The translations under genes were made by a program, and so were the position numbers. A stretch of 54,710 nucleotides of DNA, taken from positions 1-54,710 of the forward strand of contig CALSCP010002373.1 in the NCBI GenBank assembly GCA_943704425.1. The letters are read 5' to 3'. Numbering within the stretch: position 1 is the stretch's first letter; each line of letters starts with the position of its first letter. Source of the DNA: Ministeria vibrans ATCC 50519. Taxonomy: Eukaryota; Protista; Filasterea. This document shows, piece after piece, positions 16,064-51,889 of the stretch. The notes beneath the pieces are model-generated. The model had not been told where the DNA came from and did no database searches. It worked only from the letters and a program-made list of their open reading frames with translations.

Positions 16064-16066
16064 TGG

Positions 16067-16074: not shown

Positions 16075-16221
16075 GTTTTTTTTTTACTTTGCCTTTACTG
16101 TGATGAATCTTTTTTTTTGGTACATATAATATCTTCTAATTTTTTGATGATAAAAATAAATATGTCACAATTTTTTTTTTCATCAAGACAGGTTTTATTT
16201 ATTTATTGCGAGTTTCTACGA

Positions 16222-17408: not shown

Positions 17409-17448
<40 letters not shown>

Positions 17449-17676
17449 CTAAGAAGAAGAGGCAAAGAGTACCTCGACCTCGGTCATATCAAGGCTCTTG
17501 ATGTCAGGAGTGTTGACGAAGACGCGGAAGGGATAGGGCAAGGCGCGATTAGCCCGCCAGTGGTCTGGCAGTTGCGTTGCAAAGACACGGCTGTCCGACG
17601 TGGGCACGAACTGCTCCGAGTCGCCCGCGTCGCTCGGCCGATCGTCGTTTGTCCCGGCGTCGTCCCGTTCGATCAT
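16222..17676 (-). CDS. DUF285/BspA-type repeat protein; first exon 17473-17676 may belong to another gene
   Basis: Repeated FN.DLS.W.V..V..M..F units across exons (FNVDLSQWDVRNLLKM, FNGDVSTWQT, FNRDLSQWHV, SDLSNWDTSK, FNADLSSWCV), ending PNWGSSSTC*. Confidence 0.8.
16506..16800. repeat. Intronic minisatellite, unit of about 19-21 nt (GAGAAAGAAACAAAGTGAGAG-like), about 10 copies
   Basis: Directly visible tandem units. Confidence 0.85.
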
Positions 17677-26890: not shown

Positions 26891-28531
26891 CTATTTATCT
26901 TCTTCTTCTTCCGAATCTGTGAGCGACTCGAGAAGAGTGGAGCGTACAGTCACAGGTGCGTGAGTGCGCAAGTCTTGCTGGTGTGAGTGTTGCGTGGAAG
27001 GGGGAGCAATACAAGAGCGACAGGCGACGGCGATAAGAGGCGGGGGAAGGAGCATAAGGAAGAGGGCGAGCCAAATGGCGGAAGGGGCGATGCAGTGCGT
27101 GGTGTCGAGGGGCAGCACGGGGACGGTGCCGTTCACTAATAGTCCTGCTGCTGTTGCCATGGTCTGGTTGGCGTATGAGACAAGTGTGCTGTTCGTGGTG
27201 GAGTTGGCGGTGGTGGAGGAGGAGAAGGGCGGTGGGCAGTAGGCGTCGAGGAGAAGCCCTGAGGCGATGGGTGAGACAAGTGTGTCGAGAAAGAGGGGGA
27301 GGGTGGAGAGAGAGAGAAAGGTGCCCAGGAGAGGTTTGGGAGCAAGGGCGACGACAAGTAGAGTAAAACGGGTAGCACCAATGATTTCGGCGATGGTCAT
27401 GGCGATGAAGAAGGGAACAGACGCGCTTAGAGTGGTGGCGCAGAGAATGAGAGTGGAGCAGGCGTAGAGGGTCGACTGGGCAACGAGCAAAGAAAAGTGG
27501 TCCACGTGGCGGGTAAGTGAGGCAAACAGAGGCACGAGAAAAACGCACATGAGCGGATTGAGGCTGCGGAAGGAGCTCCACAGCACTGAATGGAATTGGC
27601 GCTGAATGTACTTGGGATAGACATTGTTCCGGACGCCTTGCCCAAAAAAGATGGGCGCGCTGAGAAGGAGCGAGAGAACAAGGACTCGGTAGGCATTGGG
27701 CATGCGAATTAGGCGTTTGAGGCCGTGCCAGGTCGACAACAACGACGACGACGACGACGCACTTGTTTGTGTGTCGGCGGACGCGAGCGACTCAAGAGAG
27801 AGTGTTGGCGCACCAATAGAGATGCGGCCCGTCGGGGAGATGTACACGTCGCGCAGGAGAAACGCAAGGAGGACACATGCAAGCGCGGTGGCGGCGCCGA
27901 GCATGTAGCAGACGCGTAGGGCAGAGACGCGCGATGACTGGTGATGCTTGGGATACTGCGCAAGAATGAGCGTTGTGATGTTCTCGCTGGCGAGCAGTCC
28001 GAGGTTGTACGCGGAGTATTGCAGCGCAAAGGCCACAGTGCGGGCACTTTCATTGGGGGTGAAGCGCACTATCGCAATGCGGAAGGCGGCCGACTGAAAG
28101 ATGGCCCGAATCGGCGTAACAACGAGAAGCACAGCCACGAGCAGACGGGAGGAGTGGGTGAACGCCAGGGCGGCACCCAGCACGGCCGCAGCCAATGAGG
28201 CGACACGCAGCGACAGGCGCAGGCCGACAACGTCGACAACGAGGCCGGAGAGAGATGCGGCGCAGACGGCAACGAGTCCGACGACGCCGATGATTTCGCC
28301 GGCTCTCAGGTCGTTGTAGCCGAAGTCGGCGGTGAGGTAGAGCGGCAGGTTGATAGCCGAGAAGGCTTCAAGGGCACTCCAGAGGAGCATGAGCCACAGC
28401 TCTCGCGGAGCGCCGCGCAGAGCGCTCGTCTTGTCATTGTTGTCATTGTTGACAGGGGAGTGCGCTTCCTCCTCCCCAATCTCTCCCATCTCCAACAAGC
28501 GACTACTGTCTTCTTCTTCTTCTATTTCCAT
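26891..28531 (-). CDS. Major facilitator superfamily transporter, single exon
   Basis: 546 aa with about 12 hydrophobic segments and an MFS motif A-like GLVVDVVGLR. Confidence 0.8.
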   Translation of the reverse strand: MEIEEEEDSSRLLEMGEIGEEEAHSPVNNDNNDKTSALRGAPRELWLMLLWSALEAFSAINLPLYLTADFGYNDLRAGEIIGVVGLVAVCAASLSGLVVDVVGLRLSLRVASLAAAVLGAALAFTHSSRLLVAVLLVVTPIRAIFQSAAFRIAIVRFTPNESARTVAFALQYSAYNLGLLASENITTLILAQYPKHHQSSRVSALRVCYMLGAATALACVLLAFLLRDVYISPTGRISIGAPTLSLESLASADTQTSASSSSSLLSTWHGLKRLIRMPNAYRVLVLSLLLSAPIFFGQGVRNNVYPKYIQRQFHSVLWSSFRSLNPLMCVFLVPLFASLTRHVDHFSLLVAQSTLYACSTLILCATTLSASVPFFIAMTIAEIIGATRFTLLVVALAPKPLLGTFLSLSTLPLFLDTLVSPIASGLLLDAYCPPPFSSSTTANSTTNSTLVSYANQTMATAAGLLVNGTVPVLPLDTTHCIAPSAIWLALFLMLLPPPLIAVACRSCIAPPSTQHSHQQDLRTHAPVTVRSTLLESLTDSEEEEDK

Positions 28532-29320
28532 TGCTCATGAGAATTAGATCAAAGGCCGGAGTGTAGGCCAATGCTACGAGAGAATTAACTCGGCTGCCTT
28601 TGGCGAGTGACTTGCAAAAATTGTGGGAAGCCCGAGAAGGCATTCATAATTATGATAATCAATGGGAAGACCTTTCATTATAGATTTTCTTGTGCGATTT
28701 AAGGAAATCAGGCGACGATCGTGGACTTTGTGGAGATGATGGTATGTGACCGCGCCCACCGTGTGGCTTTCCCCAACATTCATCGAGGCGCCAGTAGAGC
28801 CGTCTTGATTGAATTTGCACGGGCTACCATCTGCGCCCTGGCCAGTGACCACCACCCGGTCGTTGGAAGATGATTCGGAGACGTATATAGGTAAGCGACC
28901 GACGTGGCATGGGTAATCGCGTCAAGACGACTGTAGGACACACTAGACGTGAGCTACAACAACAAAGGGGGTTTTAGCTGTTTGTTTACCCGAAAGAAAG
29001 AGGTACGTACTGCTTTGCAAGAGCCGATTTCGTGCTTTACATAGACCGCGCCTCCAGTGCACACATACTCCGCCCGACAACGAACAAAGCCACCACGCGC
29101 AACGGCAAACACTCCCAACATGGCGAGCAGGACCTGGAGCCTTAAATATTGTTGTTAATTACCGTAATACCTTAATAATTAATAAAGAATAGGTGATAGT
29201 CGATAGAGGGCCAGTACAGTCGTCGGTATTTATTTATTTTTATTGGCACGATCAAGGCTCCCGGTATATTAGAAAGCCATTAGCACGAAAAAACAAAGTC
29301 AAGCTACTTCACACTTCATT

Positions 29321-32300
29321 TTATCTTGTCCAGTCTAGATCAGAGACGTCCACCTCAGGAATCTTCCTGCAATGCGATGGTGCAAGAAGAGATGCTTTCG
29401 CACTCTGTTGACTCGGTCGTACATGTATATCCTCTTTGTTCTTGATGCTCTTCCCACTCTGCCTTGCCCCCGTCGTCTTCGTCTTTGTCCCCTTTTTTGG
29501 CCTTGACTTCTCTGCTCCGCGTTTGATCGCTACTGACATCACTGTGTCTACAGAGAGTTTGTTCGTATCCTCGACTGGCTCTGTCTCAACATCCACGAGT
29601 GTCTGAGACACCTTAGAGGGCACAGCAGTACGCGTCGTGCGCCCGCTCGTGCCTGGCTTGTCCGGATGGTCCTCTGTCTTTGCCTGCACCACTCCCTTCT
29701 CGAATTTGCCCTTCTTTGCCTTCTTCTGTTTCTTCTTTTTGCCTGAACTGGTCGTGACCGTCTCGTTCTTCAATACCACAGCCTTCTTCTCACGACGTTT
29801 TGTGTTGCTGCCCTGAACCACACGAGTCGTCACATCCGGCACAGATTGGCCGTTCCCACTCGCCTCCCCCTCCAACACATTCTGTCCACTGGTCTCCTCC
29901 TCCAACAGATTCTGTCCACTGGTCTCCCCCTCCAACACATTCTGTCCACTGGTCTTTTCCTCCAACACACTTTGTCCACTGGTCTCCTCCTCCAACACAT
30001 TCTGTCCACTGGTCTCCTCCTCCAACACATTTTGTCTACTGGTCTCCTCCTCCAACGTATTCTGTCCACTGGTCTCCTCCTCCAACACATTTTGTCCACT
30101 GGTCTCCTCCTCCAACATATTCTGTCCGCTCCCACTCGCCTCTTCCTTCCAGACATGCTCATCCTCATCCCCATCCTCGATCTTCTCCTCGCTCTCACTC
30201 TTCCTTGTCACAACATTGGGCGGCTCAAACGTCAAGGACAGTGCAGCCTCATCGAGCGCCGTAAACTTTTCATGAAATGACTCCGATGTCTTCTTGACTG
30301 CTTCCATCAGATCCCCGTCAATACCGTCCACAATCTTAAACGCGTGGTGGATGGTGCGAAGCACATGGTCAAAATCGTTCAGCAGGCGGTAGGTGTCGCA
30401 ACGTCGAACACCAATGTACTTCATCAAATCTGGCTCAGCCTTGTCGTTGAGAAACCGTAGTGCGTACGCACTCCATTTGCCCTCGTTGGCACGAGTCCAG
30501 TGACGCAAAGTGGGTACCATGACTTCAAAGAGCTCCAACTGGGCACGCGCGTGACACATCAGCTCATGACTATTGCCCGCCTTGAGATCCTCATCTACAC
30601 ACCCGCAAAGTGCATCAAAAGGCACTTGCACTCGTACCTCTGACGGAGTGTCACCCGAGTCATTTCCATTCCGTCCAAATGGCTTAGTCTTTGACAGAGG
30701 AAACTCAAGCAAACTCGACAGTGCTCGACCGGCAATGAACGACAGATCACGCAGAGACACCACCAGCGACGACACAACGTGCTCCGCGTGCTTGTGCACC
30801 TCCTCGACCACTTCATCGCTCAACGGCGGAAGAATTTGGTCCACCTCGTCTCCTTTTGGCTTGCTGTACACCTGACGCTCGCAAAAGAGCCAAGCAATTG
30901 TGCAAAACACACGCTGTTGATACTCTTCCATCGGTTCCAGCTCGAAAATATCAATCACTTGCCCCTCATCTTGTTTTTGTCGTCGACGTCGCTTGAGGGC
31001 TCCTGACTCAACAAGTTTGACGAGCATCAGTCCTCGCGGATGTGCCCACCACAGTCGGTGGATGACTTGGAAGAAGCCCTTCTGCTCGCATCCATCTGTA
31101 AGCACACCCGCTCCATAGAGCCAGTGGGCACTCGTACGAAAGTGACACATTTTCTTCAGCTGTGCAGCTGTGTTCGACTGCCGTTGAGCTTGTTGTCGCC
31201 GACCACCGTGCTCGTCAAGCGTGTTGTGCATTGATAGATTTAACATTCGATCAAGCGCCTTGGCATTCGATTTTGCCTCCTCAATCGTTGAGACGCACCG
31301 CCGAGTTGTGATGTGCAACATGCGTGCCACAGTTGGGGTTGCGCACGGTCCGTTAGGAATCACACGCGGCAGTTGTGCCTTTAGCAGGCGTCGTACAACC
31401 GCACGAGGTACTCCCACAAAAACCACATGCCCGAGAACGTCGTGGCCACGTCGCCCTGCACGTCCCGCCATCTGTCGGAAGTTCATTGGCGTGAGGAAGG
31501 GCGATGTGCCCATAAAGACACACGTGCGAGTTGGCGCGTTGATGCCCAGTGCGAGCGTTGTCGTTGCAAACAAGACGCGCAGTACCCCTTTACGAAAGAG
31601 CGTCTCGACCAACAGACGAAATTTGAGAGGCAATCCCGCATGGTGCACACCCACGCCAACACGCAAGGAGCGCAGCAAATCATAGTCGTCGGATGGTCCA
31701 AAACCAAACGCGCGGCAGTGGTCGTCGACCACCGAGGTGTCGTGCTTGTCGAGCAGGAGTGTGTCGCCCGCGACCGCCAATCCGTCGCTCAGGCGCTTCG
31801 TCCAGCTCGTCAATACACCACGCTCCCAGCCAAAGAGAATCGCAGGCAGTCGCTGTGTGGCGCGTAGTCCTTGAACCACTTCAAAGAGCACCTTGTCGGG
31901 AAAGAGTACACCCGGATCATTCGCGGTGATCAGCTTCGTTTTGGCTTGAGTATGCTCCTTAAACGCAATGGAACTGTACAGCGCCCCATCCAGTGGCTCG
32001 GAGAGCGAATGAAGCAGCTCATTCAGTCCTGCTGACTTGACATCGTTGGCCCAGCTGTTCAACAGCTCCAATAATTCCTTTATGTAGCGATTTGCATCCT
32101 CACGAAAAATGCAGGTCGGATCAGAGAAGTAGCGACCCGGCGCCAAATCCCCTGTCTCCTTCAGCCGGTCTGACAAGTGCTCGGGAATGTCACTTTGCGA
32201 CTTATCCACAAAATCGCGGAGCGCACTGTACAGGATGACGGCATCGACAGGCTCCATGTCAAACGGCGAGCGCAGTTGTAACGTCACTTTCTGGCTCAGG

Positions 32301-34480
32301 CCTCGTCCGTCTTTCTTTACCTGCCGCTCAGCATGGCACAATGGATGCGCGTGCACAAACAGACTGGCGTCATCAAAATCAAGACAGGCATGCTCATGGT
32401 GCGAGGAAAAGATCGACGGGTGATTGTGCACCGCGTGAGTGGACCACGTTTCGTTGCCAATGCGCTCGTGTTTGCTGGGCTGGAAGACCGCGACACGCAA
32501 TTGTGCGTGACGAGTTTTGTATTCAATGAGCTCCACAGGCTTGGGTCGTAGTGTCGAGAGCCAAGTCCGGAGGCACTCAGGGTTGCCCAGGGTCGCTGAA
32601 AGCGCCAAAAAGGGGCATTGCACCAGACGGAAGATCTCCTCAAGACACTGCGAGTAGGCAGCACCGCTCGCACGCTCACCCGAGTCCAAGATGAAGCCAT
32701 TGCCACTCAGCATGTGAACCTCGTCGACAATGAGGAATTTAATGCGCTTGCGCCAGGCACACGCGTCTCCGCCAAGTAGAAGCAAATGCAAGCACTGAGG
32801 GAGGGTGACAAGGTATGCACACTCTTTGAAGCGAATGCGCGTGTCGCGTGTGAAGATACCCCACACAGTCTCACCCAGCCGGTTGTACATCTCAGCAGCA
32901 ATTTGGTTGACAAGTGCCTTTGTCGGTGCAATGTACACGACCACGCCAGGGTCAGCCCGAAGGCCCGTGCACGCCTTCTTGCTATACGCCTGCATGGCCG
33001 AAAAAGACAGATGTGTCTTGCCACTCGACGTGGGTGCACACACTAGAACAGAGTCGTTGCGCTTAACTGCCTCGAGAACCCTGACTTGCCATGGAAAAAG
33101 TGCCTCACCACCTGTGCCAGTGGCACTTCCATCAGATGGCGCTGTTGACGCAGCGCCTTTCCCTTTCTCACTTTGCACTCTTGACGGCGCAACGCCTTTT
33201 CCTTTCTCACGTGGCGCTGTCAACGTTGACGCAGCGCCTTTACTCTTCGCCTTTCCTTTGCGTGGTGACTCGATGAACTCTTCACTCTCTTTGCGGTCGG
33301 TTGCACTGTTGGCACTGCGAGTCAAAGCAACGGATTGCTGCAGTTCGGCGCTGAGGTATCTCAGTTGGAACGAGGCGATACCGTCACAGTACCTGTCAAG
33401 GAGACCATGGGAAACCCACTCACGGAAACGCTCACGGCTCAACTTGGTGAAAAGATTGCAAACAATGCCGCTGGCGGCTGTTGGAGTTTGCGCTCGAGTG
33501 ATGATGATGTGTGACACGACACGGATGAGACGTCGCTTCAAGCTTTCGAAGGCGGCAGCGTCTGATGAAGGCATACGTGCCAAGTCGAGCACTAAACGGA
33601 ACTCTTCACGAATGCGCTCGGGATTGCTACAGACAGAGAGGGACTGTCTCGCCGCAGTAACAGTCAATGACAATGCCAACTCGGCAATTTGCAGATGAGG
33701 CATTTCATGCAGTGAGCACTCCTCCCAAAACCTTTTGGTGCGAGCCAACGCGTTTTCCTCTCGCTTTGCTTTCTCAGCAGAGGTAACGGCACGCTTTGCG
33801 TATTTGGAAAGATCCATCACTGCTTGATGCTTCTCGAGGACAAGGGGTTGCAACTTCACATCATCAAGGGACGTGCGACTTTTGCCAGAATGCCAACTGA
33901 CGTTTTCATCCTGACGCGTGACTGCCATCTCCTCCGCAAAGACGGTGTCTTCGGTGTTCTCGCACCAGCGCTCATCAAGCCGCTGCAGCAGAGTGTCACC
34001 GTCGGCGTGTTGCGACCCATTGGCAACGTCGTCAGTGAGACCGCCTCTGAGATTAGCCCACAAGTCAGTGTTCGCCCATTGGGACGGCAAGGTTAGGGAG
34101 TGCTCTGATGAAAGAGTGTTGTTGTCGGCGCCTGTCTGCGGTGGTGGAGCCAAAGGGCGCCAGTACTCGGGTGCCGCAAGAGCCCATAGCTGATCAGGCT
34201 GATCGGGAGACGGGAAGGCAGCAGTGGCGGTAGTGCTGCTATGAAACGCAATACGCCAGTTGGTGAGTGTGGCACCCTTGACGCGGTCAAAATGAGGAAC
34301 ATCGAGCCATGAGCGGCTCGGCGAGGCACTGGCACGACCAAGAAGATTGCATAAAAGAACCCCATCGAGGCAATTGAGAGGCGAGAAGACACCTGTGGCG
34401 TTTGCAGCAACAAGAGTCTCTGAGAGATGGTCCAGTGCCCGTCGCACAACATCAACACGAAGCAATCGCGCATCGACTAA

Positions 34481-34530
<50 letters not shown>

Positions 34531-36842
34531 TAAAAAATCGGCCTAAATGATAGCCCTTCACCAGCGCAAGACGATCAGTGAACGTGAGACAGTCAAGCAG
34601 AGCAATATGCACGAGACACGCGAGAGAAAAGTCACAAAACTCTTCGGCGCTCATGTACACACAATATCGAGGATTTGACATGGTCGAGAGGGCATGAGCA
34701 ACGACGAGGACAGGGTCTGTCGCGTTGAGAGACCAGTTTGGCGCGGGAAACGTACGGAGTTGAGACGCACAGGTAGACGATGGAATGTGCTGAGTGTGAG
34801 TGCCAAAGCGGACAAGGGAGAAGAACAGATTGGGATCGTTGAGGCGCGCGGCACGGTAGAGCTTCCCGCAAAACTGTTGCGTGTCAAACTGGTCGAGAGA
34901 GGCGACGTCAAGTGAGTAGGCGTTGCACAGGCGCAGGAGCAGAGCCCACGGGTCGTCGTCAACCTGTGCGGGGTTTTCGGATAGATCAGCGACAAAAGTG
35001 AAGTCGGTGGCAAACACACAGTGCACATCGTGGTTGTCCACAAAGTCCCACCACTCGGGATCGGAGCAGAAGGAGAAGAAGGTGTGCGAGTCGAGCGAGA
35101 GATTCTTCTTAGTGGTGAGATTGTCGCGAATGTGGTGCTCCAGCAGATGGCACAGGAGACGAGCAGACTTGTTCGACCTGAGAAGTGCCATGTCGTCGAG
35201 AAGGGGCGGGCAGGACGATGGGTGAACTGGCGCAGTTGTCAACCTGCAGGCATAGAGTTGGTCGTCGAAGAACACGATGTGTACGTTGATGCCACGCTCG
35301 ATGAAGTACGAGAGAAGCAGCTCACAATGAAACGTGAACTGGGCGATGGGAGGAATGCCTACGTTGGGCGAGCGTGAATGCAGGCTGTCAAGCACTGACG
35401 CTACAATAGCCGCACCAAACAGCACAACGGATGTGGAGTGGTCGCAGCCTTGAAGGATGTTGGAGTCCATCGGCTGGTTGACAGAGTGGCTCGTAAGTGC
35501 GACAGAGGAGCCACCGTCGTTTAGATTCAGACGCGCGCACTCCTCAGCCACCCACTTGTGACACGACTCGCGTGTGCGTGACGTCTCGGAGAGCAGCAGT
35601 TCATCGATCAACGGCAATGTGCCTGCACAATCTCGTGCTTTTGCAATCTGCACGAGTGTGTCAAGAGCGTTGGCGTATTTGTCGTGAGACAGCGAATTTG
35701 CACGCTCCCATTTGTCACAGTGGCGATAAAAGTCCAGCAAAAGAGGATGGTCAGTGTCAGGGCAGAGAAGCAACAGCAACGCTACGACGCTGCGAATGGG
35801 AAGCGGCGTTTCGATGACTGGGTTCGTGAAAATGTCTCGATGGCGGTCAATGGAGTAGTGCCGAAGAAGAAAGTGTACAAAGGAAGCGGTCGAGCCGGTG
35901 ATGGTCTTCGTGGTGAAAGGAAGGTAATCGAGTGCAATGGTAATGTTGTTTTCCAATGGGAGTACGTTCTCACGAACGATCTCGTATGGGAAATCGCTAT
36001 CAACGTCGAGAAGTGTCAGTGTGTTTTTCAGTGCCACTGCAGCGAGTTCCTCCGACCAGCGATTCAGTGTCGGACGAATTTCTCTGATTGCCCCTCCAAG
36101 CTAAGAAGAAGATGACAATCAAGGCAAATCGAAATGAATCATAATAAATTATCATAAGAGGGCTTACTTGCAGCCAACGCGTCACGCCGGATTTTTCAGA
36201 GAGGCGAACGCGACGTTGCATCTCTTGCGTGCCCCAACGCAACGGGTCCGAATTGACATTGGCGCATTCTCGTTTGTGGCGGTCGCAAAGGACGTCAATC
36301 TCGGCGATGTATGGGCTGAGGGGGTCGTTGGCGAAGACGGCATTCAATTTTGTGAAATACTTGATCACTGACGTAAAGTGCGGCTCTTGCGGCGGTGGCT
36401 TGCCACACCCAGGGAGCGGCACGTGCGCCTTCGGATTACGTTCGAGCTCTCTGAGTCGTCGAGCCGCCTCTTCCACCACGCTGTGCTTGTCCTTCGCGAG
36501 ATTGGCGCAGCAGAACTCGAGAAAGTTGAGAGCCGCGGCCAAATCCCACGTACTATCCTCTCCTTGGTCCTTGACGAAAAGCCGAGCAAAATTGAACAGC
36601 GCTTGGCCTGTGTACGTGTTAGGTGTGTCGCTGGGGCTGCAAAGGTGGAGCGACATATTGGAAGGGTTGTGGTTCTTGTGAAATCTTTTGAGCTTGAGCT
36701 GCAAAATGGGAGTTGATCCTGGGAGGCTTCGGAGCAGATTGCTCGCGTGGAGATCACTCACAGCTTTGACCGCCCTTTCAATAATGTCATAGAGTTCTTT
36801 ATTCGCCTTCTCATGATACTGTGAGAAGAAAGTATTGGTCAA
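29321..36842 (-). CDS. DDX60: DDX60-like Ski2-family DExD/H RNA helicase, about 2480 aa, two exons (36842-36168, 36100-29321)
   Basis: CAPTSSGKT, VYIAPTKALVNQ, IVDEVH, CPFLALSATLGN, GVGVHHAGL, FATTTLALGINAP and FRQMAGRAGRRGHD; DDX60-like N-terminal segment (LLSYFIERG..HIVFFDD); a phase-0 GT-AG intron joins the two ORFs in frame. Confidence 0.88.
29861..30145 (-). repeat. Coding 30-bp tandem repeat (EEETSGQNVL), about 9 copies, in the helicase tail
   Basis: Unit ctcctcctccaacacattctgtccactggt is directly visible. Confidence 0.95.
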
Positions 36843-37482
36843 TGGTCAGTACTCAGTTTGTTTTTTTTTTTCAGACCGAATCCATTGGGTAAGCGAGTGC
36901 GTGACTGCGTGTCGCGAGATAAGTGTATTGACTATTGAGATTGTCGGAAAGATGGCTCAAATAGTCAAATTGGCTTTAGTCTTGGTTTGGTCGATTGTAG
37001 TGAATGTGGGGGAAAAAGTGTAATAACTCAGTGAGTTGACTGAGTTCAGTCAGACAAAGTCAACGAAAGAGCGAGCAAAAGTGACTACAAAACAGCTTCG
37101 AATCGCTAAATCCGCTATTTAAGCTAGACAAGCGTCAAGAGGGAGCCGACACAGGTTGGGTTACTTTGAAATCCTTGCTAGTTTGGCGTACTCGACCATT
37201 CATCATGATCTCTAATGAAAAGGGAACGTCCCCACCTAACAACGGGCCTTTGTGATTCTCCTCAATCTCTTGCATTGCCCGTCGCTCTTTGCTTCATGCT
37301 TGTCGCTTTGAGTGCGTCTTTGACACGCTTGATAAGTTGATATACGGAAAAGATCAATATGGCTATTTGTTGGGGAGGTGATGTGGCACTTCGAGTGGAG
37401 TTGAAAAAAGTAAACAAACAACAACAAACAAATTCAACTGCCAATCATTCACACACATTTCCTGACTTTATTAATTCTTGTT

Positions 37483-38877
37483 ATGGACCTCAAGACGAGG
37501 AAGCTGCTGCGGAAGCAGAATGCTGTGTATGAAACGGTGAATGCGTCTATCCGAGCCATCCGTCAAGAGGCATTCGAACGGTTTCGCAATCTTCTCTTGA
37601 GAAATCAGCATTGCCTCCCAGGAACGGTGGATGCCGTCCATCGCGCTGGTTCAACGGCCAAAGCAACAGACATTTGGAAGTCTGACGTGGACATCGTCAT
37701 CGCGTTTAATGATTTGGCGCCACAGAAAATTGCGCAGTGGATGAGCCGCGCACTCGACGGAATCGAAGCAGTGCTCCAGCTCGACGAAGAGTTCCCGTGT
37801 CGTCGACGCGACGAATTTCTGATATCGTGCTTCTACAAGAAAGGCGGCATTCTGTGCGAAATGGATCTTTTGCCAACATGTCGTATTGAAGGAATGCGGC
37901 AATTGAGCCTACTTCCTCATGAAAAGTAAGGAAAGATTTATTCACAATAATAATAATAATAATAATAATAATAATTATTATTATTACGTCTTTGTTAGTT
38001 ATGACTTCAATAATTAACCCAAATTTATGATTATTTTTTTGTGCTTTAGGTACTACGACGTTGCAATGACGGCTGAGTTGAAATCAGTGATATCGACAAT
38101 GAGATATAGTCCGCCAAAGTGGCGCCGCCATTGCAAGACAGTGGTGAAGGTTCTGAAGCGAGTTTTGGCGCGTGACATCAAAGGTGAGAAGTACTGCTCC
38201 TTCTTGTGCGAACTCGTCACCATGCATGCGGCTCAGTCACTTCGAGATTCCCAACATCGATGCGTGATGTATGAGGACCTTCTCATGCGAGTGGTTCAAT
38301 ACTTGGCGCACCCTGAGCGCCTTCATATCACATGGGGACATGCGTCGAAACACGCGCCTGAGCTGCCTCTCGTTCTTCTACCAAGCACAGCCGTGTACAA
38401 AAACGTCTGCAAAAACCTTGAGAAAAAGTGGCCCGACAGTGCCAAAAGACTGATGGAAAAGATCTTGAATGACCCCAGTCAATTGTTGGGTGCGTGTAAT
38501 TATTTAGGACTCAACGTACTCGCGTGAAAATTAATACTGTTCTTCCTTTCTCTGTAGATCAAGTCGCGCTCGCGGAAGACACGGAGTGGATTTTCGATTT
38601 GGCAGTTGAAAATGAGTCCCCATCAGCGTGCACAATGCTGTTGCTCCAGCACAAAAGAGAGAGCGCGAAAGCGACGGCACGCAGGGAGGCGCAGCTTTAC
38701 AAGGCGAGACAGCGCGCCCAGCTGACACTCGATTCGGACACAGACTCGAGCTCGTCTGATGCCGATTCATGCGATTCGGGTTCCGAGGAGATGTACATGT
38801 CCGACGTACGCGTCGACTGGAGAAGCAAAGAGGAGCCGGAATGGAGCAGTGATGGCGCTGGGTGTGTAATCTCGTAA
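37483..38877 (+). CDS. 2'-5' oligoadenylate synthetase-like nucleotidyltransferase (OAS/cGAS superfamily), about 400 aa, three exons
   Basis: Exons 37483-37925, 38050-38489 and 38558-38877 splice in frame; AGSTAKAT...SDVDIVI, a third Asp in EMDLLP, and OAS1_C-like KTVVKVLK, SFLCELVTMHA, LHITW and PLVLLPS...KNV. Confidence 0.8.
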
Positions 38878-39743
38878 AGACCCTTCCTCATCAATCAGTC
38901 TGAGAATCCGTGACCCGTGTACATCAGAAACCGTCACAACCCACAAACTAACTACGACCTACGTCGATGTATTTACGAAGTAATCACAAGAAGGGAACAC
39001 TTGGGTTGGGTAATTCGGGTGAATTTCGAGACTCTACGTAGGTAGTGAGTGATCTTTATCAACGTAGAGGTCGAGGTTCCGAACGAGGCAGCCACGCCGG
39101 TCTAGGCTCCGTAGGCCCCCGCTTTAACTTTTATTAGCAATTACGGCGGCGTTTAGTACGAAGTCGGAATAAATGACTCAAATCCGTACTGCTGTGCGTG
39201 CCATAGTCATGATCACCGAGTCTCTGAGTAATAACTGTATCAACTGATAGATGTAAGATGAATTTAGATGATAGACTCAGATAGAGGGCCAATAATGTCG
39301 TCTTTGGCGAATATGCACGGGCCACCGTCACGCCACCGTTTCGATCGGCAAAGTTTGACTGAGTCTGACTAACCTGAGAGTGAGTAGAGTATAACTGTCT
39401 GAACTCTGATCAGACCACTCATCCTTCTCTCTTTTACTATGACGTCGGTTCAGGATCTGACTTACGGCCGTGCTGCCATGCCGTTCACCCCCGAGCACGA
39501 CGAGCTCACGACTCGAAGGTACGAAATGAAATCCAACGCGTGAAACCAAAAGCACAAGCGAAAAACACGGCCACGCCTTGCGCCTGCGACCTGCCTCCCC
39601 TCCCGTCCCAATCCCCAGTCGGATCGTGACAGTACACTCGTCACACTGAGGATTTGCCCTACTTTTGTTCTTTCTCTCTCTCTCTTTTTTTTTTTTTTTT
39701 TTTTTTTTTTGCTTTTTTGATAATAATATTGTTTTATGTATAG

Positions 39744-40432
39744 TTGTCGAAGAGCGTCTCATGCAAAAGTACAAGAGTGTGGTCAAGCTTGTATCACAGC
39801 TTCAACAGGTAATAAATGTCAAAGGATGCACAGCAATGACTATGGTGTGTTTCTGTAGTCTTTCTCCGCTGTCCTCTCAAAGGCCCACAGACTCGACCAG
39901 GTCACGCAGAACCACGAGAAAATGAAAGAAAGCGAAACAGAGAAAGTCATCAGCAAAGGTACAGTAACACACGATTAAGAGATAATAATTATACTATAAT
40001 TAAAATAATAATATTATTTTTCAATATAGAACTGGCAAGCACTCAAACGAGTGCTCACAGCACAGCACACCCCACTCCACAGCCCATCGCCGCCACTACA
40101 CCTGCCACTCCCACTCATCCTACTACTACGACTACTGCAACTTCATCCACGGCAAGTGCGTCGGCGGAAACGCGTCGTTTGCGTCGCACCATTGCCCGCA
40201 AACTCCGCTCCAACTCTGCTTCCCCTTACGTTCGCTAAAACTCCCATATTACAACCTTTTTCTCTCTTTTATTATATTATTACTATTACATACGCACCCT
40301 CTCTCTCTCTCTCTATCACTTTGTATCTTTCTCTCTCTCTATCACTTTGTATCGTTCTTTTCTTTCTCTCTATCACTTTGTTTCTCTCTCTCTCTCTATC
40401 ACTTTGTATCGTTCTTTTCTTTCTCTATCACT

Positions 40433-40513
<81 letters not shown>

Positions 40514-41500
40514 TCTCTTTATCAATTTGTTTCTTTCTCCTCTCTCTCTGCATACACACATTGTGACTAATCGTGTGGTGGTGTTTGGTGATAGACGCAC
40601 TGCCGGACCTGACGCCAAGTACGCGACGGCGGACGACGATGATGCGGCGGTGGTCTGCGGCGGCACTGGATGCGCGCGAGGTCGACTGGAAAACCATTCG
40701 CATTCCGTCCCTCATTCCCCTGAGCAAACTTAAACTGCGCACGGCCGACGACCGTCGCAATCCTGAGATGGACTATTATGCACAATTGAAGAAGAAGAAG
40801 AAGAAGAAGGTAAAATGGTTATGCAGGGAGAGAATGAAAAGAAATGAGCAATTCTCAATGGTGTATTTGTGTAGCAATCGAGCGACGACGCATTTGCTGT
40901 GCTGGATCAGATGAGCGTGGGACACCCGACAGAAGTGCAGCATTTGAATCACGCCGAGAAGGACTCACGCAGTGGAAAGGTACCGTTCAATTCTCAAGTG
41001 CGTCTTTCATGCTTTGCTTTTGCATTGTAGATTTTGGGACTGCCAACGTCAATGCATATTGCATATGTGCGACTGCAGAACGGAACATCGGGTCCCGTAA
41101 TGCCTGCTCAGCTGAGTTTTGGAGCACCTGCCATTCCCGTACCCGCAGACACACTATATTCGCCCTTCTATTCACTTACACTATCCTCTCCGCGTAGGAG
41201 GACGATGGGCCGTCGTTAAGTAAGAAGGAAAAGAAGAAGCTCAAGAAGAGTGTAAGTGCGGGTGATGGAGCTACTGCGTCTACCAAGGTATCATCAAACT
41301 TGATTTTGATCACACTTTACTGACTGTGCGCTTCACTCTTGTTGTGCAGGAGCGAAAGAAGGCGCAGAAGGAAGAAGAGAAGAAAATGCGACGGGCGGCG
41401 AGTAGTGCGGACGACTTAGTGAAGGGGAAGAAGAAGAAGAACAAGAAGGGGAAGGGAGCGGAGGAGGAGGAAGATGTATGACTTCACGCACGGACGCAAT
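39744..41500 (+). CDS. Hypothetical multi-exon coding sequence(s), possibly pieces of two genes either side of a CT tract
   Basis: Chain of GT-AG-bounded exons (coiled-coil, Thr-rich and Lys/Glu-rich); no family recognised. Confidence 0.45.
40298..40550. repeat. (CT)n tract with embedded TATCACTTTGT units
   Basis: Directly visible. Confidence 0.9.
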
Positions 41501-41834
41501 ACACGCAATCGTAGATATAGATTTAAATTTATATCTGACTGTGTTGTTGAGCAGAACTATTCTATCATTCAGATGTATCCGCAACAGAAGAAAATATAAT
41601 AATAAAAATATTTATTATAATAATTTATTATAAGTATTTATCAACTAAAATTATACTAGTGGGTCGAGAAGTCTACTGCGGAAGTATTGCGCGGCTCTTT
41701 GTTTTGTATATTGCAATAAATTGTGTTTACACCAATTACACGCCTTGATCGTTGATTGTCAGTGTGTTTGATTCAAATGATTTTTCACTCTGATTATTTC
41801 TGATATTCATTTTCACAATAATTGCGTCTTATTC

Positions 41835-43929
41835 ATGTCCCAACCGCCGATCACACAGTTCTTTGGGAAGCCCAAGACGTCACGGGCTGCGGCAGCTGCA
41901 GCAGCTTCCACAGCTGCAACGACCACGACAGCGACAAGCACCCCAGCAGCGAGCAGCTTTGGCGGAGGCGCAACTGAACGTTTGGCGACGGACACAAAAG
42001 ACGTTGCGACGACTGCTGAGGAAACGCGCGAGAGCGACGAGTCGCCCACGCTAGGCATGGAAATGCACGATGACGATGCAGACGACGACGAGGAAATGAC
42101 GTATGCGGAGGAGGCGGAGGAGGCGAGCGGAGGGGAGGACGAGGCGGATGCGGACGAGGAGGAGTGCAGTGACAGTGTCGAGGGGGCCGACCTGACCCTT
42201 CCGTACAACTACGACGAGGAGTACAGCAACGACGCCGTGCTCAGCCAGGAGCCGGTCGTTGTCGAGCACAATATGACGCCCATCTTGACCCATCTTGGAC
42301 ATGTTCCGCTTGCGTCTACCGCCACACACACAGTCCTCAACAGCGGCCACACGACGGCTGCCGCACACGATTACTGGGACAAGGATCACGTACGCATGCC
42401 CAACTCGAGTCACAACCGCTATCCGCCGTCGTATGGGCGTCGCGAGTCGCGCTGGGCGACCATTGAGCGCAAACTGCGCACTACCCTTGTCAACGGTCCA
42501 ACCGACCTGGCGGCGCTCATTGGCTCGTTCACCAGCCGTACCGTGTCCTTTGATGGTCTATGTCACTTTTTTCGTGACCAAGGTCGAACGCTTAAACGCG
42601 ACTTTTTCACCACGACTCTTCCCAAAATGGTAACACTGGCGCTGCGCATTGGCCAACTGTTTCCCTCGGGCATTCCTCTGCTCTGCACCAACCGCACTCA
42701 CTCGCTCACCATGTCACAGCAACAAGCAGCTTGTCTGCTCACTCATGCCTTCTTCTGCACATTCCCCTTACGCTCGCGTGACCGTTGCCATCGCGACCAT
42801 CTTCCATCCATCAACTTCGATCGTCTCTTTGCTGACCAGAGCGACGTCAACGCTGCCAAACTACATGCTCTCATCACATATTTTACGCGCGTCACCGAAT
42901 CGCCTCCTGTCGGAGCACTCACATTCGAGCGAATTGCGTTGGAGTACGCGGCGGGAACGCGTCTCACAGACTGGCAGGAGCTACGCGTGCCTCTGAGCCC
43001 CGTCACTGTCCGCGTCTCCGGAACCATTGAGGACTGTGCCGCCAACCTGGCACACGCCGACTTTGCCAACAAGATCATTGGCGGCGGTGTGCTTTCGCAC
43101 GGTGCTGTCCAGGAGGAAATCCTCTTTCTTATCAAACCCGAACTCATTGTGGCCCGTCTCATTACCCCTGAGCTTCTCTCTACCGAAGCCCTACTCATTT
43201 TCGGCGCAGAGGTATGTCTTGTGTTTTGTTTTCATGGTTTTGTTTTTCATTTTGTGTTTGTGTGGTAGCGGTTCTCGGAGTACAGTGGTTATGCAAGCAC
43301 ATTCCGGTTTGCAGGGCAACATCACGACCTGACTCCACTCGACCCGCACAACAGAAGGTCACTCACTCCACTCACTCACCCACACTCAATGACTACTGAC
43401 AGTGCAGTACTGTCACCGGCACACCACTAAATCACACCCATTTTCACTCGATGCTTGCCATTGATTGCGGTCACCTGCTCATTGACGCCGCTCATCTCTC
43501 CCTCACGCACTCACTCACTTACTCACACACACTCACACTGTCATCTCTAACCCTCCCTTTCCTCTTTGACTGCGTAGGACTAGTGCCGTCATTGGAATTG
43601 ATGCAATGGTCTTCCGTTCGCTTTCTGATCAGCTCACTCCCAAAAGTATTCTCAGAGAACTCAACAAAGTAAGGAATTTTAAATCAGAAAAAGTTTATTG
43701 TTGGAAATGATGTCATAATACCAGACAACCTCACTCACAAATTCGCATTTACTCTCTCCTTTTCTTTCTCTCTCACACACACTAGGCATACGCTGGATTC
43801 CAGAATACGCTGGGCAGTGCAATGGACGGCACAATGGCAGTGCGCACCCGCTCGCCCATTGCGACGGGAAATTGGGGCTGCGGAGCGTTTGGCGGTGATC
43901 GCATGACCAAATTCATTCTCCAGTGGATT
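41835..43929 (+). CDS. PARG: Poly(ADP-ribose) glycohydrolase; last exon(s) not seen
   Basis: DFANKIIGGGVLSHGAVQEEILF (GGG-x-QEE catalytic motif), AFFCTFP, RELNKAYAGF and IATGNWGCGAFGGD. Confidence 0.93.
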
Positions 43930-43984
43930 GTATGCTTCATCTCTTCATTGCTACATCGTCTCATAATCACTCTCTCATTCATTT

Positions 43985-44069
43985 CGTTTCTCTTTCTCTC
44001 TCTCTCTATCGCTTATTTCTTTCTCCTCTCTCTCTCTATCACTTTGTTTCTTTCTCCTCTCTCTCTCTC

Positions 44070-44834: not shown

Positions 44835-47800
44835 ATGGGTACGAAAGCAACCGTTCTCCTTTCACATCTTGCCCATCATTGAACTTGCCCGCCTCCCTCC
44901 CTCCTCCCTCCTCCCTCTCTCTCTCTTTCCCTGTCTCCCCGCCTCGGCTCCTCTTCCTCTCACTCCTCCCCTGTTCTTTCGTAGATGCGTTGAAGCGGGG
45001 CTACCTCAAGACGGCAGCGCTTGGCGGCGCAAGTCAACAAAACGCCCTGACCCGAGCCATCATGGACGAAAAACGCGTCTACCTCGGCATCGCTGGCACC
45101 GTCAAGGCGCGATCAGTAGGTTAGTTGGCCCCTCGTCTTCCCCTTGCGGCCCCTCGCGACTGCCTTCTTGGCGCTCTCCTTTTTCCCTTTCAAACATGTC
45201 ATAAAACAATTTCCCTTTCATTTTTTCACACGTAATTGGTGGCATCCCTTCCAATGCATCGCCCCTGCCCGCTGCGCCGCGCCGCGCCACTCGCCGCCTC
45301 GCGTCCATTGCCTTACGTGCGCGCCACTTCAACTGCCCTCCTCCTAAGTCTTTCCACTCTGTGTCGTCAGCATTCAATATTCTTTTTTTTTTTTGCCTTT
45401 CGTCGCTTCTTTCCGTTCCCTTGCACCACATTTCTGCCCCATCGCTTGACTTTCCTTGCATTTTGCTCATCCTCATCCCTTTCCGTGCTGTCGTAGCCTT
45501 GCAGAGTCTCGTCAAATGGACGCGCAAAGAGGAAAACGACACTCTGCGAGACATCTTTTTGAACGCAGCCGAACTTGACAAGCTCTGGGCGGACGTTCAA
45601 ATGGAGTTTGCCGAACGCTACCTCGACTACCGGCGGGCCTACAAGGACATTCGGGAGCACGAAAAGGCTCTCGGCCGCTACCGAAAGACACGTGACGCGT
45701 GCGAGAAGAAGGTTGCTAAGGCACAGGGCGATCTCGATCGGGCCATCAAGAAGAAAGACGACGCCCGTGTGACCGCCCTCGAAATCGAACTCGACTGTGC
45801 TCGCGAGCAGTATCGCGTCGCCGATGTCGAGTTCGAGGAGAAATACCGTGAACTCGAGTCGTTCAAGGGTTCTGCCGTGCGCACTGCCCTCACCGATCTC
45901 AGCGACGCCTACATCGACATGGCCGACAAGTGCTCGACGCTCTTCAAGTCTCACAAAGAGTTCCTCGCCGACGATCACCACACAAGCAGCGCCAGTGCCA
46001 CCACCGCGTCAATCACATCCACTACCACCCCATCTGCCACCGCAAACAGCACTGGGAGCGCATCTACCCCCTCTGATGGGAACTCCTCGAGCCTCTCGAC
46101 GCCCCCCTCCACCTCGTCCATGACCTCCAATGCCCAGAGACGCATTAATGAACTGCGTGCTCGCATTCCCGTTCATCACCAGCGACATCGCTCCGAGTAC
46201 TTTGAGGACCTTGACGATCTGACGGGCGGCGCTGCAACCGACGACGACGATGGCGACGGAAGCAACACATCCCGTGACTCAACCTCGAATCGTACCAAAC
46301 TGGCGAGTGTTTCGTCGAGCTCCGCGACGGCCGTCGCGTCGTCACGGCCGCGTCCACGCACCCCTACCAACCGCCCTCGCTCGTGCAGTCAATCTTCGAT
46401 GCTTTCTCGCGACAGCGCCTCCGCGTCCGACACAACCCACGCCACACCGCCACACTCTCCCTCCACCGCTCGTACCCACATGAGCCGCCGTGTCACCGAT
46501 GCCATGCGCTCTCCGCCCTCTACTCGGGCCGACGGCGCGTCGCCGCTGCTCGCCGAAGTTCACGCAAAAAACCTCATGCGCTCGGCGGCCGCCGCGGATG
46601 CCAACAACAAAGTTCCCCTCTCCAACGCCATCACCGACTCCCTAAATGCCAACACATCGCCCTCTTCCTCTTCGTCGTCCCCCGCAGCCGCCTCAACGCC
46701 AGTGCCCAGTCTTGCGGCGGCCGCTGTTGCTGCTCGTCCCAACTCACCGGGTCTACCGCCTCGCACAGCCTCGCTGTCACCCCCGCCGTCGCCTGCAGCC
46801 TCGCGCGACCTCCTCAGCTCCGACACACGTCTCGGTCCGTCTGACTTGGCGCCCTCCCTACCAATCAAGCGCGTTAGTGTAGCGGGAACGGCCGAGCTGC
46901 GCCGTGGCGAGCGACCAAAACACCCGCCCCGCGCTACTCGCGGTCGAGAGCATGTTCGTTCCTGGAGCCTCGGTGGTGGTCCTGGTGAACTCGAACGCAT
47001 CACGCGCGGCGACATGGATGCCACTTCGTCACAGTCACCCTCGACCGCCAAACCGCCAGAGCAACAAACGCAGTCACAGCAGGAGGGAAGCCAGATGGTC
47101 TCCTACCATTCGCTGGGTGCCGTCAGCGCCAGTGGCAATAGCAATAGTGGTGGCAAGCCAAAGGGCCTCAAAAAGCGCATCGGGCGTCTATTTCGCGGCA
47201 AGACGGTCGACTCGACGTCCCCTTCCTCATCTCCCTCCTTCCCCGGACCCCCAGCAACCACTTCGCCCCCTACAGCGCATGTCAACGTATCTGCCTTTCC
47301 CACGCCACAACGTTCCGCCAGCATGGCTCCCTCGACGTCCGCGTTTGCTTCTAGTTCGCCCACCAAGTCCGCTGCCAAGCCCGCCCAGCAAGCACCCACG
47401 TTCTATTCGTCGGCAGGCGGTGCCGTTCCCGACGCCAAACGCCCTATTCTTCCTCCCAACTACAAGGCCGAGCTGCCACGCGACCGTTCGCAGTCCCTCG
47501 GCGCCTCCTCTCGCCTCCAGCTTCGACCTGGCCCTTCGCCTCTCGGTGCTTCCACTCAGCCCCAACAGCAACAACCACAGCGCCGACGTGCTCCCCCGCC
47601 TCCTGACCATCCTACTACATCGACCGCCCATCGTAACGCCGAGCGCACTACCAGCGCCGACGACGGTTCGCTTGCGTCGGCCCTCAAACGAGGCGGCTCC
47701 GTGCGTGGCGCCACCAATCCACGCGCGGCCGCTCGCATTGCCGAGAACACGGCGGCCGCTGTGGTGCAGAAGAAGGCGGAGGCAAACGCGGACGACATGG

Positions 47801-50800
47801 AAAAGGAGAAGGACTCGCTCCTGAAAATGGCCGTGTCCACCGACACGCTGCATGGAAATGAGTACAATCGCACGCGACGCTGGTCCTCCGATTTTACCGC
47901 AATCGACTCGGAGCTCCACGTCAAACTGGACGCCGTCAACGACGCGTGGCACCACGAAAATGGTGAGGATCTCGAGGAGGTCGATGATGACGACGATGAC
48001 GACGACGAAGGCGCCTACGTAGGCGGCGACTATGACTTCCACAATGACGACAATGATGATGATGATGATGACATTGACGACGCCCTAGACAGCATGTTGC
48101 GCGGTCGTGGTCGAGGCACTGACAGGGCAACGACCGGAACTAATTTGTCCCACGACTCCGAATCCCTCACGTCATCACTCTCCGAGTCGACTACTCCGTC
48201 GCACACGTCGCACGGCGGTGCCTCGCGCCAAGTTTCAACAGACCCCGTGGTGCGCTACAGTACCAGCGCACTGTCGTCGTCGTCAAACATTGCGGCTAGT
48301 CCGTCAAGCTCGCTCGCATCGCTCAACTCGTCCACCGTTGCCTCCGCGACCTCTCCTGGTGTTTCGCCCAAGTCAATCGGTCGTCCTGTGCCCGCTCCTC
48401 GTGTGGGTTCCACCGAGGATGCCAGCAAGCCGCCTGACCGTGCACTCTCGCCCACGCCGCAACCTCGTCCTGACCGTGCTCTCTCGCCCACGTCGCAGCC
48501 TCGTCCCGAACGTGCACTCTCGCCCACGCCGCAACCCCGTCCTGACCGTGCTCTCTCGCCCACGCCGCAACCTCGTCCTGACCGTGCTCTCTCGCCGTCC
48601 GAGGGCGACGCTGTGGTGCGCCGTCGATTTGGCGCCAAACAGGCACCGCCACGACCACGCAGCAGTGCGAGCGAGGCACTCCAGCGACTCCAACTCGACG
48701 TCAGTTCCGTCACCGAACACGAACGTTCATTCTACGAGGCGCTCGCCAACGCCCCGCCCGACGAGGACGAGGAGTCTATCGATGGTGTTGCTGAGGCCGC
48801 TGCGGCCGTTGCTGCTGCCGCCACTGCTGCCCTCAGCGCCGCCAAAGCTGCCCAGTCAGCCTCACCCGCCAAACTCGATCCCACGGCGCCTCCACTTGAA
48901 AAGCGTTCGCTCCCCGCACTTCCACCCCGCACCAACTTGTCGGCGGGTTCTCCGGGCCGTCTAATTTCGCCCCCTACCGTGGGCTCGTCGCACAACCGAC
49001 CAACCAATGCTGCCGAGGCACGCGCAGGCCTCCGCTCCACACCTGCAACGCCTCGCCCCACGTCTTTGAGCTCCGCTATGCGTGCCCCACCCTCCGCAGA
49101 CAAGCGTGCCGTACTTCCACCACGCGCTACCTTTCGCCCTGCCTCCATGACTTCTTCGGCACCGCCGCCGCGTCAGTCGCCCGTTCACGCCCCACCCGTG
49201 TCAAAGCGAGCCAGCGTGTCGCGTCGACGTTCCTCGCTCGATGGTAGCGTTTGCACGGCGGTCGTCGAGGAAGAGCCGCCGTCGACACCGCCCAAGCGTG
49301 GCTCGTTTGGTCACCGCCGTGGTTCGTCCATGGACAACAGTGCACTGGCAGCATCGTCGTCGCTCACGTTGGTTGGCACTCCGGATGCCGACGAACTCGA
49401 CTCTGTGGTCGAGAGGGCGTCATTGTCGTCGGAAGGCGTGGTCACTCGTGAACCCTCGTCGGCGTCACCTGCCGGCGGCAAAGATCCGGCGCCATCGAAA
49501 GAGCCACTGCGTATTGTCACCTCCTTGTCGAATGCTAGGCAACAAGACACAGACATTACTGCCGTGACGTCGGCCGCTACTACACCCCCGTCGTTGCCAG
49601 TCAAGCGACAAGGGTCGTCTTCGTCTGTTGTCTCCGGTCCTGGTGACTCACCCCGTGCCATTGTCTCGCCACGAACCCGCCCGACAAGCAACCCTGCGAG
49701 CTCGCCACCGCCACCGCTGCCGCCAGGCAAGCATCAGGTACTTCGTCGTCTCTCGCTCACGACCAACCAAAACCCCGAGCCGACCGCTACGAGCGGCACT
49801 AACAGCGGTGCAGCGCCTGCTCTCAGCACGGATTCTCGGCCGCCAGTGCCCCCTGGCAAAGACCGCGTTGCGAAGCAACTCTCGACGAGTGTGGACTCTT
49901 CGTCGGTGCTATCGTCGTCAGGCACGCCACCGCCTCTGCCCCCGGGCAAGGACAAGGTGTCACGACGACTGTCGCGTGCCAATGCCGATACGTCGCCCGT
50001 CTCGAGCGAGCGTCGCGCATCGCTAGAGATGGGCGCTGGCGTACCTCCCCCGTTGCCTGAGGGCAAAGAGAAGGTCTCAGCTTGTCTGTCAGCTGCGTCG
50101 TCGTTTTCGTCACCGCTCATCGACAGCACTGCTGCGAGTAATAGCACCGACAGCAACGCGACTTCCTCTGCACCTTTGACTAAACACCCAGCACTGCGCC
50201 GTCTCTCAATCGACGCGACTGCGACCTCGCCCTCTCCGCCACCGCCCGTGCCCGCTGGTAAGGACGCCGTTGCGAAGCGCCTCTCGGTGGACTCCTCCGC
50301 GTCGTCCGGTGCTCCTCCATTACCACCAGGCAAAGACAAGGTCGTCAAGCAGTTCGCGACTTCTGCCATCGCTGACACGGAAAAGGAGGAAGACGAAGAG
50401 CTAAATGAGGCAGCGAGTGTGAGCGACAAGGACACGGGGGAGGAGGAGGAGGAGGAGGAGGAGGAGATGGCAGCGTTGAAAGTCGGGCAGGCGAAGCCCG
50501 AGACTGCCTCTGACTCGTCTGCTTCTGCTGCTGATGAGGCTTACGAACACGACGCACCGGTGGCACTCGACGAGCCGTTTGCAGTGCGCAGCGTGGAACC
50601 AAGCTTGGACGACCTCTTTGAGCGACTAGACCGTCTTGCTGGCAAGGTACTGGCATCATCGCAGCTGTCGTCTGGCGACATGAGCACGAGTCGGGCGCGT
50701 GTGGCTGCCCGCATGGCCTCGGCGTCGCCCAAGGCAGACACGTCCACTGGCGCGAAGAAGACTGCTCTATCGCACGAAACAGCGAGCCCGCCACAGGCGG

Positions 50801-51549: not shown

Positions 51550-51889
51550 CTCTCTTGTATAATAATCATGCTCTCCATATTTTTTTTTTCTAACTCATCA
51601 CATGAGAGTGAACGCAACGTATTAATGTATTATTATTATAATAATTTTAAAGGCAAAAATTAAAAAAAAAAAACACTAATAATTTTTAGTTTTCATTTTT
51701 TATTGACTGTCTCGCGTGTCTTGGACCTCGCTCGTCGTGTCTGGTCTCGCGGAGGAGTTTGGACGTTGGGAAAGACCTTTTCAACCCCGCCCTGTTTGTG
51801 TGGCTCCTAAAGGAAAGGGAAGGAAGAAGAAACTGGGACAGGAAAGAAGAAGAAGAAAAAAAAGGCGTTGCTACGGAAGTTCGTAAGCT

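Follow-up and report, generated by a model that had tools for sequence, protein, structure and literature searches.

An OAS-like nucleotidyltransferase with a CaaX tail is encoded head-to-head with a DDX60-like helicase in Ministeria vibrans

The animal OAS1 and OAS2 enzymes (PDB 1px5, 4rwn, 4ig8 and 9h1z; Mytilus OAS P0126-P0128) combine a nucleotidyltransferase (NTase) lobe and an OAS1_C-like lobe with a G-S loop and an Asp triad, and human OAS1 p46 has a basic core and, in its last exon, a C-terminal CaaX box behind an acidic stretch. Through this box p46 is geranylgeranylated and directed to endomembranes, which is needed for its extra antiviral activity, and the OAS CaaX box has been described in diverse vertebrates (PMC8357416, PMC10683996). 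Human and mouse DDX60 and trypanosome k-DDX60 (PDB 7ase/7ask) share a PIN-like region, a Ski2-type RecA core with all motifs and a C-terminal region. Here we describe a locus of Ministeria vibrans ATCC 50519 in which an OAS-like gene on the plus strand and a DDX60-like gene on the minus strand diverge from a short spacer, within a 54,710-nt stretch of contig CALSCP010002373.1 (assembly GCA_943704425.1) that was analysed as a whole and is called the window below. Both families are known across eukaryotes; judged from the sequence, what appears to be new here is a CaaX-tailed OAS beside a DDX60.

Several linked gene pairs are comparable. The choanoflagellate cGLR and STING genes, which lie 178 bp apart, likewise place a gene of the CD-NTase superfamily next to an immunity-type gene in a unicellular organism; there the receptor is described as proven and the link as present in two species, whereas the present pair consists of an OAS-type enzyme and a helicase and was observed a single time (10.1101/2025.09.04.674280). 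The colocalised Viperin and CMPK2 genes of metazoans are likewise two adjoining antiviral-type genes (10.1101/2022.12.12.520048). Viperin and CMPK2 are enzymes that cooperate in one pathway, and their synteny is conserved, whereas no biochemical link between OAS and DDX60 is known. The Viperin-CMPK2 layout is head-to-head, and no OAS-DDX60 gene pair was found in the literature. Co-expressed head-to-head integrin genes of Capsaspora provide a further precedent for linked partners in unicellular holozoans (PMC5560861).

The gene models were checked against contigs of public sequencing runs (X1, X2, X5, X6, X8 and X10). Runs are termed RNA-like here because their contigs carry splice joints; none is recorded as RNA, and the X10 contig is DNA-like and may come from the sample behind the window itself. 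Where the window itself shows one minus-strand frame of 2259 codons (29321-36100) and, on the plus strand, three short frames (37414-38877), the contigs yield two genes that are both intact and spliced, with the joints of the locus present in runs from at least four studies, and they confirm the divergent layout given in a preliminary description of the window. One X10 contig (record 9, 34541-37936) is continuous across the 5′ end of the helicase, the spacer and exon 1 of the NTase, so that the two genes have not been brought together by a misjoin at a repeat. The spliced helicase comprises 2479 residues from the ATG at 36885 and has two GT-AG introns, 36819-36876 (X1, X2 and X6) and 36101-36167 (X1 and X2), where a single one had been proposed. 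The first of these has an unusual donor, GTCTGA, behind a 9-nt coding exon, and is removed in three runs. The NTase has 400 residues from the ATG at 37483 and ends at 38877; its GT-AG introns at 37926-38049 and 38490-38557 are skipped in X1, X2, X5, X6 and X8. An optional third intron (37410-37494) is spliced in X2, which removes the ATG at 37483, and kept in X1; starting from the ATG at 37359 the protein has 413 residues. The spacer, previously put at 640 bp, measures 597 bp to the ATG at 37483 or 473 bp to that at 37359. It is covered by RNA-like contigs of X1 and X2 and mostly by those of X5, and it holds no notable repeats, those found being weak.

Five of the six coding differences among the runs (32196, 34162, 35113, 36067, 36721 and 38675) are amino-acid changes; four rest on one contig of low depth each and could be errors. 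Contig depth is greater for the NTase than for the helicase in X5 and X6, which was not used for ranking, since assembled contigs cannot rank genes. The spliced contigs of X6, which was sampled from seawater, depart from the window by a few letters; the organism is therefore marine. X7, X8 and X9 were considered as relatives and rejected, as they held only short near-identical pieces and yielded no synteny.

Sequence comparison places the NTase closest to OAS, and not to the poly(A) polymerase (PAP), terminal uridylyltransferase (TUT), CCA-adding or DZF enzymes. Taken alone, NTase exon 1 had no match in a search of 5.8 billion sequences or in the PDB, and against domain and defence models it gave weak matches to NTases and to cyclases of the cyclic-oligonucleotide-based antiphage signalling system (CBASS). 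Among 1.84 billion representatives there was one true relative, P0124 (42% identical); P0122 and P0123, found in the same search (four rows including the query, P0121), were dropped as repeat artefacts. When a profile was built from the NTase and P0124, the top five of eight PDB rows were OAS1/OAS2 (best E 0.0018), followed by CD-NTase, and all five matches in the database search were OAS (best E 0.004). The OAS-like identity suggested earlier is thereby upheld, and in these searches the NTase did not group with the housekeeping poly(A)- or CCA-adding enzymes that had been named as the alternative. P0124 alone has a weak MTPAP-like match, as true OAS proteins show too, and the OAS scores are modest overall. 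Against a profile of seven OAS domains, to which its identity is 18-25%, the spliced NTase aligned by HHalign over residues 33-280 (94%, E 1.2e-7) and scored 17.0 bits, the maximum in 500 shuffles being 8.9. G56-S57, D68, D70 and D128 align to the catalytic positions of OAS1/OAS2, and the core is basic (pI 9.3) as in p46. The second lobe is weak when taken alone (P 0.004, probability 8.6%), with no match to Pfam OAS1_C (PF10421) or the PDB, and Pfam SMODS is likewise not reached. OAS proteins are reported from 8 of 12 eukaryotic supergroups, with many from choanoflagellates and amoebozoans among the first 27 of the 324 rows of supplementary file 2 (PMC10732462).

The last NTase exon, which is joined in five runs, ends in a CaaX box not remarked upon in the preliminary description, and no CaaX variants are listed in X1, X2, X5, X6 or X8. 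A serine at the last CaaX position points to farnesylation, and an acidic tail favours endomembranes rather than the plasma membrane. Going by its motif, the NTase is likely to be farnesylated at this box, whereas that of p46 ends in Leu and follows a different tail, the one here having 105 residues. Among the 626 stop-ended frames of at least 50 residues in the window, the strict CaaX pattern occurs once, in the NTase. As background, it was found in 10 of 12542 frames from the fetched loci and in none of 130 stored proteins, and composition alone predicts 0.03% (about 0.03-0.08% in all). No CaaX-bearing OAS outside vertebrates was reported in the titles and abstract beginnings among the matches listed. 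Retention of the last intron would end the NTase at 306 residues, within 38490-38527 and without the CaaX box, a layout like that of human p42 versus p46; no such form is present among the listed contigs.

The minus-strand gene is assigned on sequence grounds to the DDX60 family rather than to Ski2, Mtr4 or Brr2, in keeping with the name it had been given. In the best 120 of 278 database matches the top ones are DDX60 (from fungi, Thecamonas, sharks, rodents, Klebsormidium and other protists), ahead of Brr2/ASCC3, and the best PDB relative is trypanosome k-DDX60 (157 bits, versus 100 for Brr2). When 40 typical DDX60 proteins were combined into a profile, its PIN-like region, helicase core and C-terminal region aligned to the protein in the same order, with profile positions 778-1153 and 1251-1707 matching at about 260 bits each. 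The degenerate PIN-like region lies below the cut-off for Pfam PF23002 (E 0.033), while Pfam DEAD and Helicase_C are matched and all seven helicase motifs sought are present. Identity to 26 aligned DDX60 proteins is 20-26%. The helicase has a long branch, and in a FastTree phylogeny (42 of 93 DDX60 and three outgroups, 769 columns) it had no supported sister and was drawn to the outgroup with support of 0.44-0.53. DDX60 homologues are described in all kingdoms of eukaryotes, and human DDX60 reduces translation driven by viral internal ribosome entry sites of type II (PMC9724679).

In contrast to its relatives, the helicase has a low-complexity tail of about 300 residues with 30-bp repeats, and an N-terminal extension of about 430 residues that had likewise gone unremarked. 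This extension had no match in Pfam or among the 130 stored proteins, including the DDX60 relatives compared, and no CARF, SAVED, ankyrin, STING or nuclease model was found in it (Pfam, NCBIfam, PADLOC and PDB). An FNIP-repeat PDB row (6nyr, E 0.008) was rejected as a sum of weak repeat matches. The single-sequence AlphaFold model of helicase exon 2 is mostly helical and unreliable, with a predicted local distance difference test (pLDDT) score of 47, and that of NTase exon 1 was set aside as too poor (pLDDT 57). Neither had a Foldseek match, and the best VIA Z for these poor models was 6.3, to unrelated folds.

Table 1. Coordinates of the features of the two divergent genes (positions in the window).
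Feature	Position	Strand	Remarks
Helicase exon 3	29321..36100	-	2259 codons: remainder of extension, PIN-like region, RecA1/RecA2, DDX60 C-terminal region, low-complexity tail
30-bp unit	29856..30127	-	nine in-frame copies, acidic tail
Helicase motifs	31445..33037	-	Walker A 33014-33037, DEVH 32714-32725, motif VI 31445-31474; all intact
(CAT)16	34483..34530	-	in-frame poly-Asp
Degenerate PIN-like region	34895..35341	-	residues 474-622; located as expected by the DDX60 profile built here (i-E 9e-7)
N-terminal extension	35471..36885	-	~430 residues, preceding the PIN-like region
Helicase exon 2	36168..36818	-	217 residues, within the unmatched extension; no family or PDB match
Helicase exon 1	36877..36885	-	three codons, the first being the ATG at 36885; joint 36818/36877 in X1, X6 and X2
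Spacer	36886..37358		44% GC; candidate bidirectional promoter
Optional upstream NTase exon	37359..37409	+	ATG 37359; joint 37409/37495 in X2, unspliced in X1
NTase catalytic exon	37483..37925	+	G-S loop 37648-37653, Asp68/Asp70 37684-37692, Asp128 37864-37866
NTase second lobe	38050..38489	+	OAS1_C-like; joints in X1, X5, X6, X8 and X2
NTase last exon	38558..38877	+	basic helix, acidic tail (pI 4.3), stop 38875-38877; joint 38488/38557 in five runs
CaaX box	38863..38874	+	Cys-Val-Ile-Ser, C-terminal, directly before the stop; predicted prenylation signal

The gene structures, family relationships, catalytic residues and CaaX box are the basis from which we infer every functional step that follows. 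Our tentative reading, to which we give a probability of roughly 0.45, is that two RNA-defence genes act in parallel from a likely shared promoter. The divergent DDX60-family and OAS-family genes would likely share a bidirectional promoter, and the farnesylated OAS would be located at endomembranes, the expected place of viral RNA synthesis, joining ATP into short oligoadenylates there, RNase L not being expected in this lineage. The helicase would act separately on ribosome-bound or viral RNA, at the level of translation, human DDX60 and k-DDX60 being proteins that act at its initiation. Such a link would most likely be local to the lineage and consist of co-induction, neither an operon-like relay nor an imported island. 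The points that we count for this reading are the splice joints, the OAS affinity over the two lobes aligned together, the Asp triad, the rarity of the CaaX box in a family where such a tail is known to matter, the intact helicase motifs with k-DDX60 as best PDB match, the divergence and low GC content that both genes share, the low per-gene probability of a chance neighbour under the assumed numbers given below, and the linked partners known from other unicellular holozoans.

A number of observations weigh against it. The CaaX pattern was defined after the motif had been seen. The acceptor-AMP residues of the 2′-specific pig OAS1 are given as S186, T187, T190 and Q193 (PMC6307210); in our alignment the altered acceptor-pocket segment of the NTase, unlike that of animal OAS, retains just the serine among these four, so that its product cannot be assumed to be 2′,5′-oligoadenylate. 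Early-branching OAS proteins have moreover been argued to be independent of double-stranded RNA and not antiviral (PMC6307210). In mice, neither interferon induction nor immunity to five viruses is reported to require DDX60, which did not capture agonists of the RIG-I-like receptors (PMC4833184), and trypanosome k-DDX60 sits in the 43S initiation complex as a general component (PMC7773551). Thus, although the family identity stands, the label 'RNA sensor' that the preliminary description attached to the helicase is disputed and not a safe one.

The linkage itself was looked for elsewhere. Among 157 fetched helicase loci, 17 are DDX60, and a search of 32,524 peptides found an OAS-like gene at none of these 17, though only 10 have at least 2.5 kb upstream; the window's own NTase exon, as a control, was recovered in the same search (E 0.005). 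For 14 of the 17 the best-matching query is fungal, two of the loci are almost identical, and nine of the 10 with enough upstream sequence are fungal-like, so the test is a weak one. In this weak test the adjacency is seen once only, an outcome that the preliminary description had named as speaking against its proposed module. Within the window, 4 of 18 adjacent gene pairs are divergent by an approximate list of genes and their ends, and such pairs with a short spacer are thus common. Under assumed, not measured, numbers of 10-100 antiviral-type genes among 10,000-15,000, the probability of such a neighbour arising by chance is 0.001-0.02 per OAS gene. This is low for one gene, whereas in a scan covering 250,000 windows neighbours of this sort will turn up by chance.

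Close behind the parallel action of two defence genes, and nearly as likely, is that they came to lie side by side by chance, the genome being compact. In that case the helicase would be an ordinary eukaryotic DDX60 engaged in translation or RNA metabolism, and the OAS would act alone, its CaaX box working or not. The breadth of both families fits this, OAS as described above and DDX60 with representatives in fungi, an apusozoan, a green alga, rhizarians, discobans and animals among the matches listed, and so do the missing linkage, the frequency of divergent pairs and the surroundings, where the neighbours are unrelated housekeeping genes for a major facilitator superfamily (MFS) protein, PARG, siroheme synthase and phosphomevalonate kinase. 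Speaking against chance are the low per-gene probability and the long branches and low GC common to both genes. Synteny is, in addition, rarely kept between holozoan lineages (PMC5560861), so that an absence of linkage in fungi says little.

Unlikely, in our view, is a direct CBASS-like relay, in which an oligoadenylate made by the membrane-anchored OAS is received by the helicase extension and the helicase blocks translation in the role of RNase L. In its most elaborate version, equally improbable, a farnesylated OAS would patrol endomembranes for viral RNA like p46, and its oligoadenylate would activate the DDX60 through the unique extension. A relay would give a task to an extension that the DDX60 relatives compared do not have, RNase L is reported to be absent from the surveyed invertebrates that possess OAS, sponges included (PMC6307210), and a CD-NTase adjoining its receptor has the choanoflagellate precedent cited above (10.1101/2025.09.04.674280). 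The extension, however, matches none of the receptor or nuclease models searched, its structural model is too poor to tell, and there is no second occurrence of the pair.

The preliminary description had also spoken of an antiviral island, set apart by few introns and by the lack of the CT/GT microsatellite introns of its neighbours. Few introns are ordinary here, as the window has six other stop-free frames of at least 540 residues, one of them of 2114. It is correct that no CT, GT, AG or AC run of 10 nt or more occurs in 27317-39673, but this too is ordinary: microsatellites are likewise missing from 8351-16511 and 44927-53110, each about 8 kb long, and all nine neighbour introns taken from listed joints are without a CT/GT run longer than 8 nt. 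An NTase intron, for its part, contains (AAT)10. What is left is a slightly lower GC and mildly atypical composition. Of 12 coding stretches compared for GC, those of the two genes rank lowest (0.541 and 0.523, versus 0.553-0.629), the codon usage of the NTase correlates with that of the neighbours at 0.38 (0.58-0.81 for 18 control blocks), and three of eight helicase blocks likewise fall below the control range. Fast evolution or low expression would equally give such values.

These compositional figures are what a horizontally acquired or virus-derived defence island would have in its favour, and we regard that origin as very improbable given the five short GT-AG introns of native type, the lack of NTase relatives in GTDB genomes, IMG/VR and JGI contigs (pattern-limited scans of prokaryotic, viral and metagenomic sequence), the failure of any of 79 viral helicase loci to pass the DDX60 score threshold, and the absence of mobile-element genes among the window frames scanned. 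Contigs of giant-virus type commonly carry a compact Ski2-like helicase core, about 28-38% identical to DDX60 motifs in most rows.

OAS genes are common in organisms without RNase L, and the role of DDX60 is disputed even in mammals; the locus offers a unicellular system of a cultured type in which both could be tested. Its interest lies in the CaaX tail and in the function that OAS may have where RNase L is missing, rather than in the island claim. The CaaX box is the sturdier novelty, since prenylation decides the antiviral activity of human OAS1 p46 (PMC8357416, PMC10683996). Should the box be functional in this protein, the targeting of OAS to membranes would be much older than thought, or would have evolved twice. 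If the relay were true, an OAS effector older than RNase L would exist, and membrane targeting of OAS would have arisen outside vertebrates. If the two genes are functionally unlinked, the locus holds two new, divergent members of known families.

Other parts of the window deserve mention. Some 3 kb downstream of the OAS gene, a spliced PARG gene (41781-44000, plus strand) adds ADP-ribose turnover as a third function close to immunity in this neighbourhood. At 39518, 39742 and 40594, RNA-like contigs from up to three runs continue into sequence that the window does not contain. One such string was tested and occurs nowhere in the window, and the exit points adjoin a T-run and a CT repeat, so the assembly probably lacks some exons of a gene at about 39438-41495. 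An exon at 17473-17676 (minus strand) encodes the beginning of a Runt domain (E 5.7e-5 with Pfam, which does not reach the cut-off) and is followed by DUF285 repeat exons at 16871-17308; the remainder of the domain was not seen, and sequence may be missing at the A-run 17414-17446. To our knowledge, Runx is limited to Holozoa, and the exon accordingly suggests a unicellular holozoan, a probable relative of animals, as the host. The gene at 12162-15131 (plus strand) encodes a class C (7tm_3) G-protein-coupled receptor (GPCR) followed by two TIR domains. A survey from 2025 that deals with GPCRs in relatives of animals nowhere uses the word TIR in its main text (PMC12716839). Finally, the 2114-residue single frame at 45205-51549 (plus strand) has a weak BAR/Pil1-like match near its start and a 36-bp tandem repeat.

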